DNA of 64,000 bases from an uncultured Candidatus Saccharibacteria bacterium (GCA_964469335.1 CAYXYK010000003.1:68671-132670), one strand, 5' to 3'. Shown: positions 7,081 through 57,826, counted from the stretch's first letter. Translations and numbers: made by a program. Notes: generated by a model not told the origin, from the sequence alone.

Positions 7081-9435
7081 ATGGAAGTTCTTCTGTTCGG
7101 ATCGTTCCTGATCGCGATCATCTATTTCAATAATCGTATCGGAAAAGCAGAGTGGCGTATCAATGAACTCGAAGGTGCTCTGAAGAAAAACACATCGACC
7201 GCTGGCTCTGAGAAGCAAGCGACACCCACTGCCTCACCGGATGGGCTCGAAAAACTTCTCGCAGTAAGCGCCAAAGAGCCAGTGACGCCGTCCCCAGCAC
7301 CCGCACCACTATATGCAAGTGAGGCGAACAGCAAGACCTCGAGCGTCCCGACGGAAAGCAATGAAGAGACCAGTGCTAGGTGGCTCGGTCGTATCGGTGC
7401 GATCGCGGTGTTGCTTGGAGTAGTGTTCTTCCTCAAGTATGCTTTCGATAACAACTGGATCGGCCCGGTCGGGCGAGTCGCGATCGGAGTACTCTTTGGT
7501 ATCGTCACCGTAGGTATTGGACAGAAGCTTCGTTCGAAGTATCAAAACTATTCCGACATTCTTATCGCGTGCGGTGTCGGCGTACTCTATCTATCCATCT
7601 ACGCATCGTACGGCTTCTACCACATGGTGATGCCCGCAGTCGCACTCTTCCTTATGGCGCTGGTGACCGCAGTCGCACTCCTTATTGCGGTAGTAGACGG
7701 AAGTATCGGCCTTGCCGTCTTTGCCACGCTCGGCGGATTCGCGACTCCGGTAGCACTTTCGACCGGTGAGAACCATCTGGTCGGACTATCTCTCTACATG
7801 ATCATCCTTGATCTTGGTGTATTCGGTGCCGCATTCTATAAGAAATGGTTGAAACTCAATGTGATCGCATTCATCGGCACACTCTTTTTGTTCGAGGGCT
7901 GGATGAGCACGTATTACAGTGAGGCGCAGCTCGCAATGACCTTCTTATTCGGATCAATCTTCTTCGGACTCTTTCTTGCGACTTCCATACTTCATCATCT
8001 TTTGCGCAAAGAACCGACTACCGTTTCCGATCTCCTCCTCATCACCGCAAATGCGGCGTGGTATTTTTCCCTCGGGTATCGACTGTTCGATCCGCTGTAC
8101 CATGAGTATCTCGGTTTCTTCGCATTTCTTCTTTCGGCACTGTATTTGGCGATCGCATATGTCTCATTCAGTTCGAATCGTGCGGATCGCACACTCAATC
8201 TCTTCCTCCCGGGAATTGCCGTCGTGTTCCTCACTGTTGCGATACCGCTGCAGCTCACCGGTCTCTATATCTCCGTTGCTTGGCTTGTGGAGGCGGCTGT
8301 CCTCCTCGCAACATCACTCTACCTACGCGAGAGAGTGATGCAGGTGTTCGCATGGCTCGTGCTCGTACTCGGAATTGCTTCCGTCGGTGATGATGTCTCT
8401 GCGATCCGAAGCGGACTCCACACATGGATGCCGCAACCCGATGCGTGGCAAGTTCCCATTCCGACACTTGCACCGTTCTGGAATACCGGCTTCTTCCTGA
8501 TGATCACGGCAACACTCGTCATCTACTTGTTTGCCTATTTGTATCATCGCTTCCGCGATGCCGACCCTGAAGCATCGCACGCGATGCTCCTTTCGCTAGT
8601 GCTTGGCAGTATCGCTACGGCGATCACATTCACGGTCGAGCTCGATAACGGGCTCGATAACTGGGTGGCTCTCCCGTGGCTATTCGAAGGCCTACTCGTG
8701 CTGTTCATCGGTCTTCGTCTTCGCTCCAAGCTCACACAAGGTGTGGGGTGGCTGATCTCCGCGCTTGGCTTGATGGCGATGGGGGGAGCAGTAGGGAACA
8801 TCCACCAAGCACACGGAGTATCAGGGACAGATGCTCCCGCGTTCTTCAATCTTGGAACACTCCTGATGCTCTGCTCAGTCGGAGTTACCTATGTTTTCGC
8901 GTATCTCTACCGGCTTCATAAGGAAAGTATCCCTGACTGGAAGAAATATGCCGGAGTACTGGTGATCATCGCGAATCTCCTTACTGTTGCATGTTTCACC
9001 TGGGAGATCGGTTACAGCTATGATCTGCGCATTCGTACACTCTCCTACGAATCGGCACGTATCCAAGCTGATGCCCAGAATTATTATGGAGGGGCAGCAG
9101 ATCCTTCGTATGTTCCCAATCCTGACGTGAACTCCGTACCGTACTATGTGGAGGTGAAGGATATCAAGAGCTCGAAAGAGACAGCGATCACGATCTTCTG
9201 GGCGTTCTATGCGATACTCCTGCTCGTCGTCGGCTTTGCGAAGCGTCTGCGAGTTATTCGTTTGTTCGGGCTAGTGTTCTTCTTCGTCACCGCGATACGA
9301 GCGTTCCTCATCATCTGGCAGCTCAATGAGCTCACACGGATCATTTCATCAATCGCGTTCGGGGTCATTGCGCTCGCTGGATCGTTCTTGTATGCGAAGT
9401 ATAAGGGTCGTTTACAATCAATCATCCTCGATTAG
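7081..9435 (+). CDS. Large polytopic membrane protein, DUF2339-like
   Basis: N-terminal TM followed by a coiled-coil (AEWRINELEGALKK) and a low-complexity linker, then more than 15 predicted TM helices; the architecture matches DUF2339. Confidence 0.5.
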   Translation: MEVLLFGSFLIAIIYFNNRIGKAEWRINELEGALKKNTSTAGSEKQATPTASPDGLEKLLAVSAKEPVTPSPAPAPLYASEANSKTSSVPTESNEETSARWLGRIGAIAVLLGVVFFLKYAFDNNWIGPVGRVAIGVLFGIVTVGIGQKLRSKYQNYSDILIACGVGVLYLSIYASYGFYHMVMPAVALFLMALVTAVALLIAVVDGSIGLAVFATLGGFATPVALSTGENHLVGLSLYMIILDLGVFGAAFYKKWLKLNVIAFIGTLFLFEGWMSTYYSEAQLAMTFLFGSIFFGLFLATSILHHLLRKEPTTVSDLLLITANAAWYFSLGYRLFDPLYHEYLGFFAFLLSALYLAIAYVSFSSNRADRTLNLFLPGIAVVFLTVAIPLQLTGLYISVAWLVEAAVLLATSLYLRERVMQVFAWLVLVLGIASVGDDVSAIRSGLHTWMPQPDAWQVPIPTLAPFWNTGFFLMITATLVIYLFAYLYHRFRDADPEASHAMLLSLVLGSIATAITFTVELDNGLDNWVALPWLFEGLLVLFIGLRLRSKLTQGVGWLISALGLMAMGGAVGNIHQAHGVSGTDAPAFFNLGTLLMLCSVGVTYVFAYLYRLHKESIPDWKKYAGVLVIIANLLTVACFTWEIGYSYDLRIRTLSYESARIQADAQNYYGGAADPSYVPNPDVNSVPYYVEVKDIKSSKETAITIFWAFYAILLLVVGFAKRLRVIRLFGLVFFFVTAIRAFLIIWQLNELTRIISSIAFGVIALAGSFLYAKYKGRLQSIILD

Positions 9436-43079: not shown

Positions 43080-43089
43080 TCTGTCAGTC

Positions 43090-43131
43090 GCCATAAGAAA
43101 AATCACCCTGATGGGTGATTTTTCTTATGGC
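43090..43131 (+). terminator. Perfect 19-bp palindromic bidirectional terminator
   Basis: gccataagaaaaatcaccc tgat gggtgatttttcttatggc. Confidence 0.75.
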
Positions 43132-43185
43132 GGGGGGAAATCGCCTTTGGATGTCATATATATGCGGTATAATTGTTCTCATAGC

Positions 43186-50205: not shown

Positions 50206-50350
50206 GGTAGTGGGCTTGGTCAGGAGTCACTAAGTCTTTTGCGGACAAAAGCCTAAGTGCTCACGACCTTAGCTCGTCCGTTTCATCAGAATGAAACAGG
50301 ACTGCGCTTTTCAAGCCCGACCGCAAGGCAAGCAGTTGCCTTGCTCTTCC

Positions 50351-50391
50351 GGCTCCAAAGAAAAAATCCCCACGAGGGGATTTTTTCTTTG
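50351..50391 (-). terminator. Palindromic terminator immediately 3' of tRNA-Thr
   Basis: ccaaagaaaaaatcccc acga ggggattttttctttgg; overlaps the encoded CCA end. Confidence 0.6.
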
Positions 50392-50464
50392 GAGCCGGAA
50401 GTCGGGCTTGAACCGACGACCTACGGTTTACAAAACCGTTGCTCTACCAACTGAGCTATTCCGG
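50389..50464 (-). tRNA. tRNA-Thr (anticodon UGU), CCA encoded
   Basis: Minus strand reads GCCGGAAUAGCUCAGUUGGUAGAGCAACGGUUUUGUAAACCGUAGGUCGUCGGUUCAAGCCCGACUUCCGGCUCCA; cloverleaf checked by hand (7-bp acceptor, D and T arms, anticodon loop UUUGUAA). Confidence 0.9.
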
Positions 50465-50839
50465 CTTATCTCGACTGCAAAAACTTCTCGTTTCAGCAAT
50501 TCAAAGATAATACGTTATTTATGTCATAAAGCAAGGAATTGATTTGTGTAACAAGGAAGAACACATATAATTCACTTATTGTGAAAGAAAATAATGCAAA
50601 GAGTGTAGCGACATGTAAAGAGTGCAAATACATCTTTCTCGGGGCATTTGCGGTACTCATCGGATTCTTTGTCGTCACATTCCTTTTGCGAGATGAAAGT
50701 GTAACGAGTTCGCTCTCCGGGAATACGACAATCACCGTTCCGGCAGCGACTTCCAGTCCTTGAATTCCCAACATTTTTTCAAATAATGCAAGTCGTTCTG
50801 ATGCGTGCCTTTGGAGCGATATTCCCATATAATGGCAGA

Positions 50840-51613
50840 ATGCATATGAGAGAAAAACTCGGCATCGACGTCACCATGCCAGGGAGTGCCCCGGAGCGCG
50901 GACACCTGCACCCCGTCACAGTCATGATGCGCGCGATCGCCACAACATTCGGTGATATGGGCTTTACCATAGCAGACGGCCCGGAGATCGAGACTGAGCA
51001 TTACAATTTCGATTCACTCAACATCCCGAAAGACCACCCCGCACGCGATATGTGGGACACTTTCTGGCTGAAGGACAAGAAGGGTCTCGAACGACTACTC
51101 TTGCGTACGCACACCTCACCGGTGCAAATCAGGCACATGGAGAAGCATGCACCACCGATCGCGATCATCGCTCCCGGAAAAGTGTATCGCTACGAGGCCA
51201 CCGATGCGACTCATGAGACTCAGTTCTATCAGTTCGAAGGGCTCATGATCGGGAAGGATGTCTCGCTCGCGAACCTCAAAGGGGTACTCCTCGCATTTTG
51301 CGAAAAACTCTTCGATCGCAAGATGGAGATCCGTTTCCGTCCAAGCTATTTCCCGTTCACTGAACCCTCTGTTGAGATTGATATCGGTTGGACCGATGAG
51401 CATGGCAAGGTAGAGAAGTGGATCGAGGTAATGGGCGCAGGTATGGTCCATCCGAAGGTGCTCGAAGGTTGCGGTATCGATTCAAAGAAGTGGCAAGGTT
51501 TCGCGTTCGGCGGTGGCGTTGATCGTTTCGTGATGCTCAAATGGGGGATCCCTGATGTGCGCACGCTCTATACCGGTGACCTTCGTGTTATCAAACAATT
51601 CCCAACGATATGA
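50840..51613 (+). CDS. pheS: Phenylalanine--tRNA ligase alpha subunit (short form, catalytic core only)
   Basis: Class II motifs FPFTEPSVEIDIGW and GAGMVHP; TATAAT (50826-50831) 8 nt upstream of the ATG. Confidence 0.9.
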   Translation: MHMREKLGIDVTMPGSAPERGHLHPVTVMMRAIATTFGDMGFTIADGPEIETEHYNFDSLNIPKDHPARDMWDTFWLKDKKGLERLLLRTHTSPVQIRHMEKHAPPIAIIAPGKVYRYEATDATHETQFYQFEGLMIGKDVSLANLKGVLLAFCEKLFDRKMEIRFRPSYFPFTEPSVEIDIGWTDEHGKVEKWIEVMGAGMVHPKVLEGCGIDSKKWQGFAFGGGVDRFVMLKWGIPDVRTLYTGDLRVIKQFPTI

Positions 51614-53565
51614 TCGTTTCTTATAACCTCCTTCAGACCTACTTCTCGAAGAAACTTCCAAAGCCTGATGCACTTGCGGAAGCGCTTACGTTCCATGCGT
51701 TCGAGATCGAAGGGATCGAGAAGAAAAACAATGACCACGCGATCGATGTGAAGGTGCTTCCGAATCGCGCACATGACTGCCTCTCGCATCACGGTATCGC
51801 TCGTGAGGTGAGCGCGATACTGAACATTCCGCTTGAGAAACTTCCAAAGGCGAAATATCCAAAAAGCAATCCGAAGACGAAGAAGGTCACGATCGAGGTG
51901 AAGGATCCGCGCGCGCTCCGCTATGAGGCGCTAGTGATCGAGAACGTGAAGGTGGGGCCTTCGCCAATGTGGCTGCGTGCGCACCTTGAGAATCTCGGGC
52001 AGCGCTCTGTGAGTAACGTCGTCGATGCGACCAACTACGTAATGTTCCTTCTTGGTCAGCCGCTCCATGCATTCGACTATGACAAGCTTAAGCATGCGAA
52101 GATCATCGTTCGCCCAGGTAAGGCGGGAGAGAAGATGACGACTCTCGACGGGAAAGATGTCGTGCTTGATCCCGATGTGATGGTGATCGCAGACGCGAGC
52201 GGCGTCTTGGGTATCGCCGGAGTGAAGGGTGGCACAAGCGCGGAGATCGATGAGAAGACAACGAACATCGTACTCGAAGCAGCCAATTTTGACGCAGAGT
52301 CGATCCGACGTACTTCACAGCGACTCTCCATCAAGACCGATGCATCGAAACGGTTCGAGTCGGGTATCACCCCGGCACTTACCGAGGATGCACTGATGAT
52401 GGTTGCGCACCTCATTCTTGATGTCGCGAAGACAGAAGAGAGTCGCGTCGGAACACCACTCGATAAATATCCCAAGAAGCAGAAGAAGGTGAACGTCGGA
52501 GTGACGCTTCATGAGATCTGTCACATCCTCGGTGCTGATTTTTCCGAGAAAGAAGTCGAGGGGGTATGGAAGCGTCTTTCGCTTCCGTTCACAAAGAAAG
52601 GGAAGGGCGCGGATAGTCTCTATACCGTCACTATCCCAGATGCACGGCTCGACCTCCGTTTGCGCGAAGACCTTGTTGAAGAGGTCGGTCGACTTGCCGG
52701 TTATCATAAACTGGTCCCGAAGATGCCGGTCGAAACCATCTCGCTGCCGTCTCTCAACAAAGAATGGCATGCGCGCGATGTCGTTCGCGAAGTGATGCTC
52801 TCGGCTGGGTTCTCTGATGTATACACCTACGGGTTCAACAGCATCGGTGAGATCGAAGTTGCGAACCCTATCGCGGCGGACAAGCGATTCCTACGTAACA
52901 ACCTCATGGGAGGACTCAAGGTCGCTGCACTTGAGAACCTCAAGTATGAAAGTGAAGTGCGCCTTTTCGAATTCGGTCATGTGTTCGGTAAGACAGACGG
53001 CAAGATCCGCGAAGAGAGTTCGTTCGCGGCGATCATCGGGTTCCAGAAACGCAAGGAAGCGCAGATGAAAGCAGATTTCTATGCGCTGAAAGGAGTACTT
53101 GAGACCGTATTCGCGACACTCGGGATAAAAGATACTCGCTACGAAGAAGCGGGGGGAGAACTCATCGCCAGCGTGTATTCAGGAAATGACTTACTTGGGA
53201 CGATGAGCCTCACCGGATTCGAGCTTGATTTCGTGAAGATGGTCACCTTGTCAGACATAGAAGTGAGATACACCGTCCCATCACGTTATCCGTCCATCAT
53301 CCGTGATGTGTCGCTGTTCGTGCCGATGCATACCAAAGCGGGGGATGTCGAGGCGGTGATCCGAAGTGCGATGGGAGCGTTGGTCCGCTCGCTCTCGCTC
53401 ATCGATGTATTCGAGAAACCCGAAGAAGGGAAGAAGTCGCTCGCATTCCGCATGGTGCTGCAGTCATTCGAGAAGACCCTTTCTGATGACGAAGCGAATG
53501 CCGTCGGGGCGAACGTGATCTCTGCCCTGGAGGCAGCAAATGCTGACTGGCTCGTGAGAAAATAA
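51610..53565 (+). CDS. pheT: Phenylalanine--tRNA ligase beta subunit (short form)
   Basis: B3/B4 and B5 domains (LHAFDYDKL..., GIAGVKGG); overlaps the pheS stop by 4 nt. Confidence 0.88.
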   Translation: MIVSYNLLQTYFSKKLPKPDALAEALTFHAFEIEGIEKKNNDHAIDVKVLPNRAHDCLSHHGIAREVSAILNIPLEKLPKAKYPKSNPKTKKVTIEVKDPRALRYEALVIENVKVGPSPMWLRAHLENLGQRSVSNVVDATNYVMFLLGQPLHAFDYDKLKHAKIIVRPGKAGEKMTTLDGKDVVLDPDVMVIADASGVLGIAGVKGGTSAEIDEKTTNIVLEAANFDAESIRRTSQRLSIKTDASKRFESGITPALTEDALMMVAHLILDVAKTEESRVGTPLDKYPKKQKKVNVGVTLHEICHILGADFSEKEVEGVWKRLSLPFTKKGKGADSLYTVTIPDARLDLRLREDLVEEVGRLAGYHKLVPKMPVETISLPSLNKEWHARDVVREVMLSAGFSDVYTYGFNSIGEIEVANPIAADKRFLRNNLMGGLKVAALENLKYESEVRLFEFGHVFGKTDGKIREESSFAAIIGFQKRKEAQMKADFYALKGVLETVFATLGIKDTRYEEAGGELIASVYSGNDLLGTMSLTGFELDFVKMVTLSDIEVRYTVPSRYPSIIRDVSLFVPMHTKAGDVEAVIRSAMGALVRSLSLIDVFEKPEEGKKSLAFRMVLQSFEKTLSDDEANAVGANVISALEAANADWLVRK

Positions 53566-53587
53566 ACTGAAATATGAAAGGCCCCGC

Positions 53588-53613
53588 AGTGCGGGGCCTT
53601 TTTGGTCGGAGAG
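53588..53613 (+). terminator. Bidirectional terminator, copy 1 of a duplicated hairpin
   Basis: aaaggccccgcagtgcggggccttttt; an identical 23-nt core recurs at 54199-54221. Confidence 0.75.
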
Positions 53614-53616
53614 TTC

Positions 53617-54153
53617 TCAGTGAATTCGTTTTTCTGTCCTCACCACTGCCAAGCAAAACGGGAGCGAGTTCTCGAGTACACCGATCGATTCGATTGTCTT
53701 GACGAACATCTCGACGATGGCGAGCAGGTGCTTCTCGTAAGCATGAAGTTGGCCTGCAGAGAGCTCATGCGTAGGTTCGATGACGATCTGGTATCCGGGT
53801 TGCCTGACTGGGATGGACGTCGGATCGTAGTCGATGAATTTCACGCTCTTGCGTTCCTGGATGACCGTCGGCTTGTAGTCTTCCCAGCTTGGCTTCATGA
53901 TCCACGGATTGTGAGCGCACGCCACTGCAAACAGCAGCGCGAGACGCTCCAATGTTTCTGGGGCTGACAGCAGAGCTGTCTCCTTTGTCGCTTCCCATCG
54001 AAGTAGGGACACGTCGATGATCCCCGAAACTTTGTAGCACGCCTCACGTTTTGCAAAGAGGTCTACTACTTTGCGGGTCAATGATCGACTATCGAAATTG
54101 GGAGAGGGCACCATCGGTAGCTCCTTCAAAGTACATGCTGGGCACGTCGCCAC
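53617..54153 (-). CDS. Hypothetical protein
   Basis: 178-aa ORF with a GTG start; TTGACA promoter element just upstream on the minus strand; no recognisable motifs. Confidence 0.4.
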   Translation of the reverse strand: MATCPACTLKELPMVPSPNFDSRSLTRKVVDLFAKREACYKVSGIIDVSLLRWEATKETALLSAPETLERLALLFAVACAHNPWIMKPSWEDYKPTVIQERKSVKFIDYDPTSIPVRQPGYQIVIEPTHELSAGQLHAYEKHLLAIVEMFVKTIESIGVLENSLPFCLAVVRTEKRIH

Positions 54154-54196
54154 AGTGGATATATTTCTACACTTTTATTGTTGATTGTCAATCATA

Positions 54197-54222
54197 GAAA
54201 AGGCCCCGCAGTGCGGGGCCTT
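54197..54222 (-). terminator. Terminator, copy 2 of the duplicated hairpin (minus strand)
   Basis: The minus strand reads AAGGCCCCGCACTGCGGGGCCTTTTCTATG. Confidence 0.65.
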
Positions 54223-54251
54223 GAGACGAACTCTCGTCGATGTCGCCGAGT

Positions 54252-54605
54252 TCAGAACGGGTAGTCCGTCCTGTGTTCCGAAGGCGGGCAGTTGGCGGAA
54301 GGAGCGATGATGCTGCCGACCAGCCAGGCGATGACGACGAACGTCATGATGGCGATCATGATGCCGATCACCCCGTGCGCCATCGGCCAAGCTACACCGG
54401 AGAACACCGAAATCGCAGCACCGGCGATCCCGACGAACTCAACTGAGTCCTTGGGACAACCTCGCTTGCGCTCCCTGTACGCCAGGGCTGCGAAGCCGAG
54501 GAGTAGAACCAGGAAGGTGGCGACGCCCCAGTAGAGGTAATTGAGGTCGTAGTTCGGGTGGTACGGGTTGAAGTGGCCGAGGTAGGAGTGCAGGAAGTCG
54601 TTCAC
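54252..54605 (-). CDS. Hypothetical small membrane protein (2-3 TM)
   Basis: 117 aa; hydrophobic segments ATFLVLLLGFAALAY and GVIGIMIAIMTFVVIAWLVGSII. Confidence 0.4.
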   Translation of the reverse strand: MNDFLHSYLGHFNPYHPNYDLNYLYWGVATFLVLLLGFAALAYRERKRGCPKDSVEFVGIAGAAISVFSGVAWPMAHGVIGIMIAIMTFVVIAWLVGSIIAPSANCPPSEHRTDYPF

Positions 54606-54816
54606 GGTCTGCCTTTCGTGCAGTTAAGTCTATTGGTATTATATATTAAATATCAAAAATGTCAATAATTTGCTACCTGAAATCCCTAGTATAAACAGCC
54701 CGATTCTTGGTGAATTTTCGGACCACAAAATGCGTGAAAAATGCTTGGTGAATATGGCTTTTCTTGATAGAATTGTGATATGAAATTGCCCTCATTTTAG
54801 GGGGCAAATTGCGTGA

Positions 54817-56925
<2,109 letters not shown>

Positions 56926-57798: not shown

Positions 57799-57826
57799 TT
57801 GACAAAATGTATTTTTTGTGTATAAT
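57799..57826 (+). promoter_or_regulatory. Consensus sigma70-type promoter (TTGACA-N16-TATAAT)
   Basis: ttgacaaaatgtattttttgtgtataat; the ATG of the downstream gene lies 9 nt after the -10 box. Confidence 0.6.

Follow-up and report, generated by a model that had tools for sequence, protein, structure and literature searches.

Twin terminator hairpins in the pheT-gyrB spacer of an uncultured Saccharibacteria bacterium: a probable accessory-gene slot holding an old and a newer unit

In a stretch of 64,000 nucleotides (nt) from an uncultured Candidatus Saccharibacteria bacterium, a member of the Patescibacteria (GCA_964469335.1, CAYXYK010000003.1:68671-132670; hereafter the window, meaning the whole stretch of DNA that was analysed), the spacer between pheT and gyrB holds two small minus-strand open reading frames (ORFs), ORF165 and ORF117, together with two identical copies of a GC-rich hairpin, H1 and H2, which are the subject of this study. 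According to the ORF list and to Pfam matches of its orthologs (B3_4, B5, tRNA_synthFbeta and FDX-ACB), pheT (51610-53565, plus strand) encodes the 651-amino-acid (aa) beta subunit of PheRS; it runs convergently with the minus-strand module, and gyrB (54841-56925, plus strand, also from the ORF list) diverges from it. ORF165 (53617-54114, minus strand) encodes a soluble orphan protein of 165 aa. An earlier note on this DNA, generated by a model from the sequence alone, had assigned 178 aa to this gene (53617-54153), and such is indeed the maximal ORF, which runs to a GTG at 54153; however, the start is most likely the ATG at 54114, which has the Shine-Dalgarno motif AAGGAG (54121-54126, minus strand, read from the sequence) 6 nt upstream and agrees with the gene calls and with the equivalent starts in all relatives. 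Its putative promoter, P165 (54164-54191, minus strand), consists of TTGACA at 54186-54191, a 16-nt spacer and TAGAAA at 54164-54169. ORF117 (54252-54605, minus strand) encodes, as the same note had proposed, an orphan predicted membrane protein of 117 aa; it has about three predicted transmembrane segments and starts with GTG (ATG in relatives); its putative promoter, P117 (54638-54665, minus strand), is a perfect TTGACA-16-TATAAT. A scar at 54617-54628, recognised from a pairwise alignment gap and from gene maps, marks the place of a further gene, ORF126, which is missing from the window although its promoter has been retained.

The 23-nt hairpin core, AAGGCCCCGCAGTGCGGGGCCTT, occurs in the window as two exact plus-strand copies in direct orientation, at 53578-53600 and 54200-54222, spaced by 622 bp; the exact repeat had been seen before, with copy 1 placed 12 nt too high and copy 2 off by one. 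The identity of H1 and H2 extends to 24 nt, i.e., to one extra A on the 5' side of the core, and the left flanks are loosely similar (ATATGAAA at H1 vs. ATAGAAAA at H2), with a looser ATAnnAAA at the left. No third copy of the core was found in the window when up to three mismatches were allowed, at a chance expectation of 0; likewise, the window contains no further GGCCCC-N3-12-GGGGCC hairpin, and its other strong hairpins and terminators are unrelated to H1 and H2 in sequence. The view that the identity goes beyond chance is upheld: H1 and H2 are homologous copies of one putative intrinsic terminator and not a coincidence. In occurring as two exact copies so close together they are unlike intrinsic terminators in general, which within one genome are normally all different.

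Both hairpins form stable GC-rich stem-loops, with stems of 10-12 bp, 8 G:C pairs and a 3-nt loop. H1 (53577-53601), which has perfect arms of up to 12 nt and can be read on both strands, folds with -21.9 kcal/mol on the minus strand and -26.6 kcal/mol on the plus strand, and H2 (54200-54222, minus strand) with its flank reaches -28.3 kcal/mol; the z-scores range from -4.1 to -4.6, and none of 200 shuffles folded as well. The minus-strand U-tract that the earlier note had reported after each copy is present (GGGGCCUUUCAUAUUU at copy 1, GGGGCCUUUUCUAU at copy 2). Directly 3' of GGGGCC, H1 continues with UUUUUGG on the plus strand and UUUCAUAUUU on the minus strand, and H2 with UUUUCUAU on the minus strand; the plus strand of H2 is without a U-tract, and no gene there needs termination. 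H1 lies 12 nt past the pheT stop codon and 16 nt past that of ORF165, whereas H2 lies 29 nt past the ORF117 stop codon and 8 nt upstream of the -35 element of P165. Thus, in stem, loop, U-tract 3' of the stem and short distance from stop codons (12-29 nt), both hairpins resemble intrinsic terminators. Bidirectional terminators between convergent genes carry A- and T-tracts on both sides, and so does H1 between pheT and ORF165. Since there are U-tracts on both of its strands, H1 would be a two-way terminator ending pheT as well as ORF165, and H2, with its one-way anatomy, would end ORF117; the notion that each hairpin terminates one of the two small genes thus fits the anatomy but overlooks pheT, which the UUUUU on the plus strand of H1 would also serve. 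An Rfam scan of the hairpins gave sub-threshold matches only, located on the 3' terminator ends of unrelated small RNA and leader models. Elsewhere in the window, long perfect palindromes with 25- and 20-nt arms surround A5-6/T5-6 tracts (AAAGAAAAATTCC.. / ..GGTGATTTTTCTT) at 2319-2372 and 43089-43132; these resemble bidirectional terminators and are unrelated to H1 and H2 in sequence.

The pheT-gyrB spacer was compared among the window, L010-L016, L001-L004, L017, L006, L138-L141, L007 and L008 (our handles for the contigs of relatives). The gene order pheS-pheT-gyrB is conserved throughout, and the content of the spacer is not. The arrangement of the window (gyrB, ORF117, hairpin, ORF165, hairpin, pheT) recurs in the JGI contigs L010-L016 (PheT identity 99%) and, with a 126-aa membrane-protein gene (ORF126) added upstream of ORF117, in L001-L004 (91%). 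L017 (90%) has ORF126, ORF117 and one hairpin before pheT and is without ORF165. In L006 (76%) there is an AT-rich spacer of 330 bp, free of genes and hairpins, with a degenerate remnant of a divergent -35 element; L138-L141 (63%) contain an ORF165 homolog as the sole gene and a single, different hairpin adjoining pheT; and L007 and L008 (51-54%) have an unrelated 106-aa ORF, or repeats. Such a comparison had been suggested in the earlier note as a way to see whether the module is an insertion, and the interval turns out to be conserved in close relatives only. The PheT tree takes the form ((L138,L140),(L006,(L005,(L001,(L017,(window,L010)))))), with L007 and L008 outside; it includes L005 (PheT identity 83%), whose contig stops within pheT.

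In L001, H1 has the variant sequence AAGAGCCCCGCAGTGCGGGGCTCTT (AAGAGCCCCGC...GCGGGGCUCUU), in which both arms are altered and the pairing is kept (-21.3 kcal/mol); these paired changes are the only hairpin changes seen among the window, L010, L001 and L017. H2, including the single hairpin of L017, is invariant in the same four, and the 29-nt spacer adjoining it has 4 differences in L001 and as many as 11 in L017, its divergence being put at 14-35%. The single hairpin of L017 combines the pheT-side flank of H1 with the ORF117-side flank of H2, the intervening 599 bp being absent. ORF117 of L017 carries a TGG-to-TAG change at codon 73 (about 687-689) that shortens the product to 72 aa; as the contig has about 2x coverage, the stop codon may be a sequencing error or may reflect gene decay. 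In L001 (414-794) and L017 (81-461), ORF126, which encodes a predicted membrane protein, precedes ORF117 and is translationally coupled to it.

The ORF165 homologs of L138-L141 occupy the same slot, convergent with pheT, and there neither ORF117 nor a second hairpin is found. The P165 promoter described in the earlier note is present and orthologous across four lineages: ATTGACAA is invariant, and the spacing and the position of the -10 element are conserved in L010, L001, L138 (TATAGT) and L140 (TATAAT). The Shine-Dalgarno/ATG context and the 5' untranslated region (5'UTR) of ORF165 are conserved in L001, L138 and L140, a conserved stem within this 5'UTR being weakly supported. Additionally, the -35 element of P117 and the flank on its gyrB side (TGTCAATAATTTG) are orthologous by position to the ORF16x promoter of L138 and L140 and to the degenerate remnant in L006. 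Relative to L001, dN/dS amounts to 0.19 for ORF165 and 0.21 for ORF117, and both small ORFs are real genes under purifying selection.

Two of the more distant relatives have features of their own in this slot. The 106-aa minus-strand ORF of L007 (8994-9314) is accompanied by its own bidirectional hairpin (AAAACCAGCCCTTGGCTGGTTTT). In L008, a Saccharibacteria metagenome-assembled genome, the spacer contains two direct copies of ttgtcattgcgacggccccga (about 9036-9056 and 9141-9161) some 105 nt apart, a further sign that the pheT-gyrB spacer is a rearrangement hotspot.

Given these observations, we consider it probable that the pheT-gyrB spacer is a small accessory-gene slot with two minus-strand units that are transcribed independently and each ended by its own copy of the same terminator; the ORF165 unit would be the ancestral one. 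H1, between the convergent pheT and ORF165, would terminate both, and H2 would stop the ORF117 transcript before the -35 element of P165, thereby insulating ORF165 from read-through out of P117. The ancestral content of the slot would be the unit made of P165, 5'UTR, ORF165 and terminator, because the homologs in L138 and L140 share the slot, the orthologous promoter, the 5'UTR and the Shine-Dalgarno sequence, and because of the PheT tree. ORF117 and ORF126 appear to be newcomers, since homologs of ORF117 are confined to the window/L001/L017 group and absent from L138, L140 and L006. In the ancestor of that group, an ORF126-ORF117 block would have arrived between the ORF165 promoter and gyrB, along with a copy of the pheT-proximal terminator as H2; the newcomer block has H2 at its 3' terminus and immediately precedes the old -35 element of P165. 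The 23-24-nt direct repeats formed by H1 and H2 would then have made ORF165 deletable, and in L017 it would have been lost by recombination between H1 and H2 or by slippage, leaving one hairpin with precisely the combination of flanks that L017 shows. We favour such a deletion in L017, and the state of L017, which falls within the clade having both hairpins, is best read as a secondary loss, since every resolution of the window/L001/L017 near-trichotomy gives an ancestor with ORF165. The window lineage would separately have lost ORF126, and L006 everything except the promoter remnant.

Hence, the earlier idea of an inserted cassette is right in that a variable slot lies in a conserved neighbourhood (empty in L006, with an unrelated gene in L007 and an extra 126-aa gene in L001 and L017), but it picked the wrong gene: the bracketed ORF165 would be the ancestral one, as L138 and L140 suggest, and the ORF117 unit with H2 the lineage-specific addition. 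Base composition does not point to a foreign origin of the locus: the small GC excess of ORF117 is what one would expect of a membrane protein rich in Gly and Ala. The mechanism is an ordinary one, and the locus is a fast-changing accessory spot with gene gain and loss rather than a new kind of mobile element. A close parallel is deletion between short direct repeats, together with accessory islets that are exchanged through homologous recombination of their core flanks, in view of the one repeat and the missing 599 bp in L017, the variable content between core pheT and gyrB and the mosaic synonymous divergence (dS) described below; the parallel is imperfect, since the repeats here are putative functional terminators and not random microhomology and the event is deduced from one low-coverage contig.

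Over 50800-55000, compared among the window, L001 and L017, dS is 0.93-1.15 for pheT and 0.89 for pheS; in ORF165 it falls to 0.33, in ORF117 to 0.34-0.57, in ORF126 to 0.08 and in the first 54 codons of gyrB to 0.19. Near 53640, pairwise identity climbs from roughly 70% to roughly 90%. ORF126 is thus nearly identical in L001 and L017 despite a pheT dS of about 1. The interval and the 5' end of gyrB have a much younger common ancestry among these lineages than pheST, and this mosaic indicates that the interval, or else pheST, was exchanged between lineages by homologous recombination.

Several points weigh against the history that we favour. Termination has been deduced from hairpin anatomy, and a simple terminator scanner, for which the U-tracts are borderline, listed neither H1 nor H2 because it counts the first U's into an A:U-extended stem. 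The search for copies covered 64 kb of a 260-kb contig, so up to a few tens of copies may exist genome-wide. A tandem duplication of the whole unit is unsupported: Smith-Waterman, blastn-short and tblastx comparisons between the ORF165 and ORF117(/126) units scored no better than shuffles, and the hairpin and the -35 element are all that the two units have in common. Moreover, the branching of the window, L001 and L017 comes near to a trichotomy, and the locus recombines, so that L017, whose contig has only 2x coverage, could represent a parental arrangement instead of a deletion product.

The wider occurrence of the hairpin sequence bears on what kind of element it is. At least 120 unrelated metagenome contigs (L018-L137) contain the 21-mer core, one copy each and mostly with differing flanks; for the 17-mer core there are 113 viral contigs (L142 onward), again with one copy each. 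Among the matches listed, the metagenome contigs have a median GC of 0.65, and 94 of the 120 have an A-run or T-run flank of the terminator type, which marks the 21-mer as a terminator-type sequence. The recurrence of the hairpin in more than 230 unrelated contigs, usually between flanks of this kind, argues for a convergently recurring terminator and not for the marker of a mobile element, and it makes an exact hairpin match between genomes weak evidence of relatedness and no evidence of mobility. This generic recurrence leaves the local copies non-coincidental but removes the idea of a specific mobile repeat. Some of the loci share flanks and are orthologous (catgaaaaAGG...CCTttttctgtttcgatg in L076, L101, L107 and L126).

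The earlier note had itself raised the possibility of a genome-wide terminator resembling repetitive extragenic palindromes (REP), of which these would be two chance copies. Like REP and bacterial interspersed mosaic elements (BIME), H1 and H2 are short GC-rich palindromes located just past stop codons, are present in more than one copy and can cause rearrangements between copies. Unlike them, the hairpin occurs just twice in the 64 kb, each time at the pheT-gyrB locus, its palindrome is perfect where that of REP is imperfect, and its sequence is spread across unrelated genomes with one copy in each. A multi-copy repeat is therefore not apparent within the 64 kb, from which a Poisson argument sets the limit at under about 50 additional copies per Mb, but the sequence has proved to be generic, being found in hundreds of unrelated genomes. 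Y1_Tnp and REP-associated tyrosine transposase (RAYT) profiles had no match in the four proteins scanned (ORF165, ORF117 and two ORFs just past gyrB).

Among the other explanations, a merger of two fillings of the slot deserves consideration, although we regard it as unlikely. In that case pheT-H-ORF165-P165 and pheT-H-ORF117-ORF126-P would have been stacked by transformation and homology-facilitated illegitimate recombination anchored in gyrB, which would account for the hairpin duplication without any special mechanism and more naturally than the deletion history does. That both fillings used the ancestral pheT-proximal terminator and that L017 descends from the second parental type are corollaries to which we give the same rather low weight. 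They would agree with the resemblance of the left flank of H2 (ATAGAAAA) to the spacer between pheT stop and hairpin in L017 (ATAGAAAAA) and in the window (ATATGAAA), and with a dS mosaic produced by recombinational exchange across the interval, in which ORF126 of L001 and L017 stands at 0.08 vs. about 1 for pheT. However, this reading requires a replacement and a merger, after which the composite would have had to reach both the window lineage and that of L001; the -35 element and gyrB-side flank of P117 look orthologous to the ancestral promoter, which an insertion in place fits equally well; and an intact arrangement of the L017 type is unsampled, since ORF117 of L017 has a stop codon. Considerably less probable, in our opinion, is the insertion of a cassette of promoter, ORF165 and hairpin between pheT and ORF117, with the hairpin duplicated as target or attachment site and L017 as the unoccupied state. 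In its favour, L017 lacks ORF165 and has exactly one hairpin, whose flanks match, and the dS of the module lies below that of the backbone; but homologs of 32% identity sit in the same slot with orthologous promoter, 5'UTR and Shine-Dalgarno sequence in a clade with a PheT identity of 63%, the slot of L138 and L140 has no ORF117 or second hairpin, the four family members among 5.8 billion proteins are single-copy and all at this locus, and the profile scans revealed no recombinase or transposase signature.

A mobile-element reading was also weighed by comparison with known systems. The unit of about 0.6 kb, with a single small ORF, hairpin boundaries and presence or absence among relatives, recalls both the insertion sequences (IS) of the IS200/IS605 group and integron cassettes. 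Yet ORF165 lacks the HUH motif and catalytic Tyr of TnpA (about 130-155 aa); its four family members are single-copy between gyrB and pheT instead of multiplied at varied insertion sites, and they are syntenic over deep divergence; and the hairpins are identical, perfect and direct. As for integrons, whose promoterless cassette ORFs are followed by an imperfect attC of about 57-141 bp with R/L boxes and lie near an integrase, the flanks examined show no sign of an integrase and no attC-like imperfect site of 60-140 bp was found, whereas ORF165 has its own conserved promoter and the hairpin is a 23-nt perfect palindrome. There is hardly any likelihood that the 622-bp unit is an IS200/RAYT-like element in which ORF165, as a divergent protein of Y1/HUH fold, acts on the flanking hairpins. 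A broader speculation, which we also think quite improbable, is that in these reduced and naturally recombining genomes terminator hairpins serve as recombination joints for the integrase-free stacking, swapping and precise excision of promoter-gene-terminator units between core genes, or, in an exotic version, that a ferredoxin- or HUH-like ORF165 recognises the hairpins. Finally, two independent terminators could have converged on one popular GC-rich hairpin sequence, as its presence in so many unrelated metagenome and viral contigs would allow; but the 24 of 24 identical bases, loop included, the similar left flank, the short distance between the copies, the lack of any other such hairpin in 64 kb, the unrelated sequences of the other terminators of the window and the shared descent seen in the L017 and L001 patterns effectively refute this reading, to which we attach next to no probability.

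Neither small protein belongs to a recognisable family, as the earlier note had supposed: ORF165, ORF117, ORF126 and the 106-aa ORF of L007 gave no significant match in Pfam, NCBIfam, PHROGs, PADLOC or PDB sequences. With ORF165 as query, 5.8 billion proteins yielded the protein itself and one 87%-identical relative; exhaustive HMMER searching among 1.84 billion representatives added one true distant match, P0007, and a profile search added P0008, both about 32% identical to ORF165. Two other HMMER matches, P0005 and P0006, were discarded as spurious repetitive eukaryotic sequences. The family thus has four members (including P0002, P0007 and P0008), all single-copy and all between gyrB and pheT, and the helix motif GQL[HQ]AYEKHLLAI is invariant in their alignment, although the synonymous codons differ. 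The AlphaFold2 model of ORF165, built from four sequences (pLDDT 74.6, pTM 0.66), has a disordered N-terminus and a predicted ferredoxin-like beta-alpha-beta-beta-alpha-beta core with a four-stranded antiparallel sheet, and fold searches with it gave generic matches only. As a best guess from this model, held with low confidence, we speculate that ORF165 may be a small ligand- or partner-binding regulatory protein acting via the helix GQLxAYEKHLLAI. ORF117 and ORF126 were also considered as paralogs, and a comparison of the two led us to reject this.

The locus provides a worked example of how an apparent cassette with duplicated ends may prove to be an old resident beside a newer neighbour carrying a copy of the local terminator, and of how direct repeats prone to deletion can arise when a terminator is duplicated exactly. 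In addition, ORF165 represents a tiny four-member orphan family of one Patescibacteria subclade, always found between pheT and gyrB and marked by one strikingly invariant helix, which may be of interest to the study of genes specific to the candidate phyla radiation (CPR).

Some further features of the neighbourhood deserve mention. A second perfect sigma-70 consensus promoter, TTGACA-16-TATAAT, is found at 57799-57826 (plus strand), within 3.2 kb of P117 (54665-54638, minus strand), and each of the two precedes an orphan gene. In the 5' leader of gyrB, 34 nt before the ATG, there is a stem-loop, TTGCCCTC-N6-GGGGGCAA (54786-54807), of 8 pairs, one of which shows a compensatory change. Conserved across five lineages, the most distant with a PheT identity of 63%, it has no match in Rfam and may be a regulatory element. 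Compared with the other lineages, L138 has some 130 nt inserted in the gyrB leader (about 190-345); the insertion contains inverted copies of cgtgtttcgaaa and resembles a small palindromic insert. Directly after the gene for tRNA-Thr(TGT) (50390-50465, minus strand) lies a perfect palindrome with 26-nt arms (50346-50401), whose right arm takes in the 12 terminal nt of the tRNA at its 3' end (CTTCCGGCTCCA), so that the trailer hairpin is an inverted repeat of the 3' acceptor strand of the tRNA.
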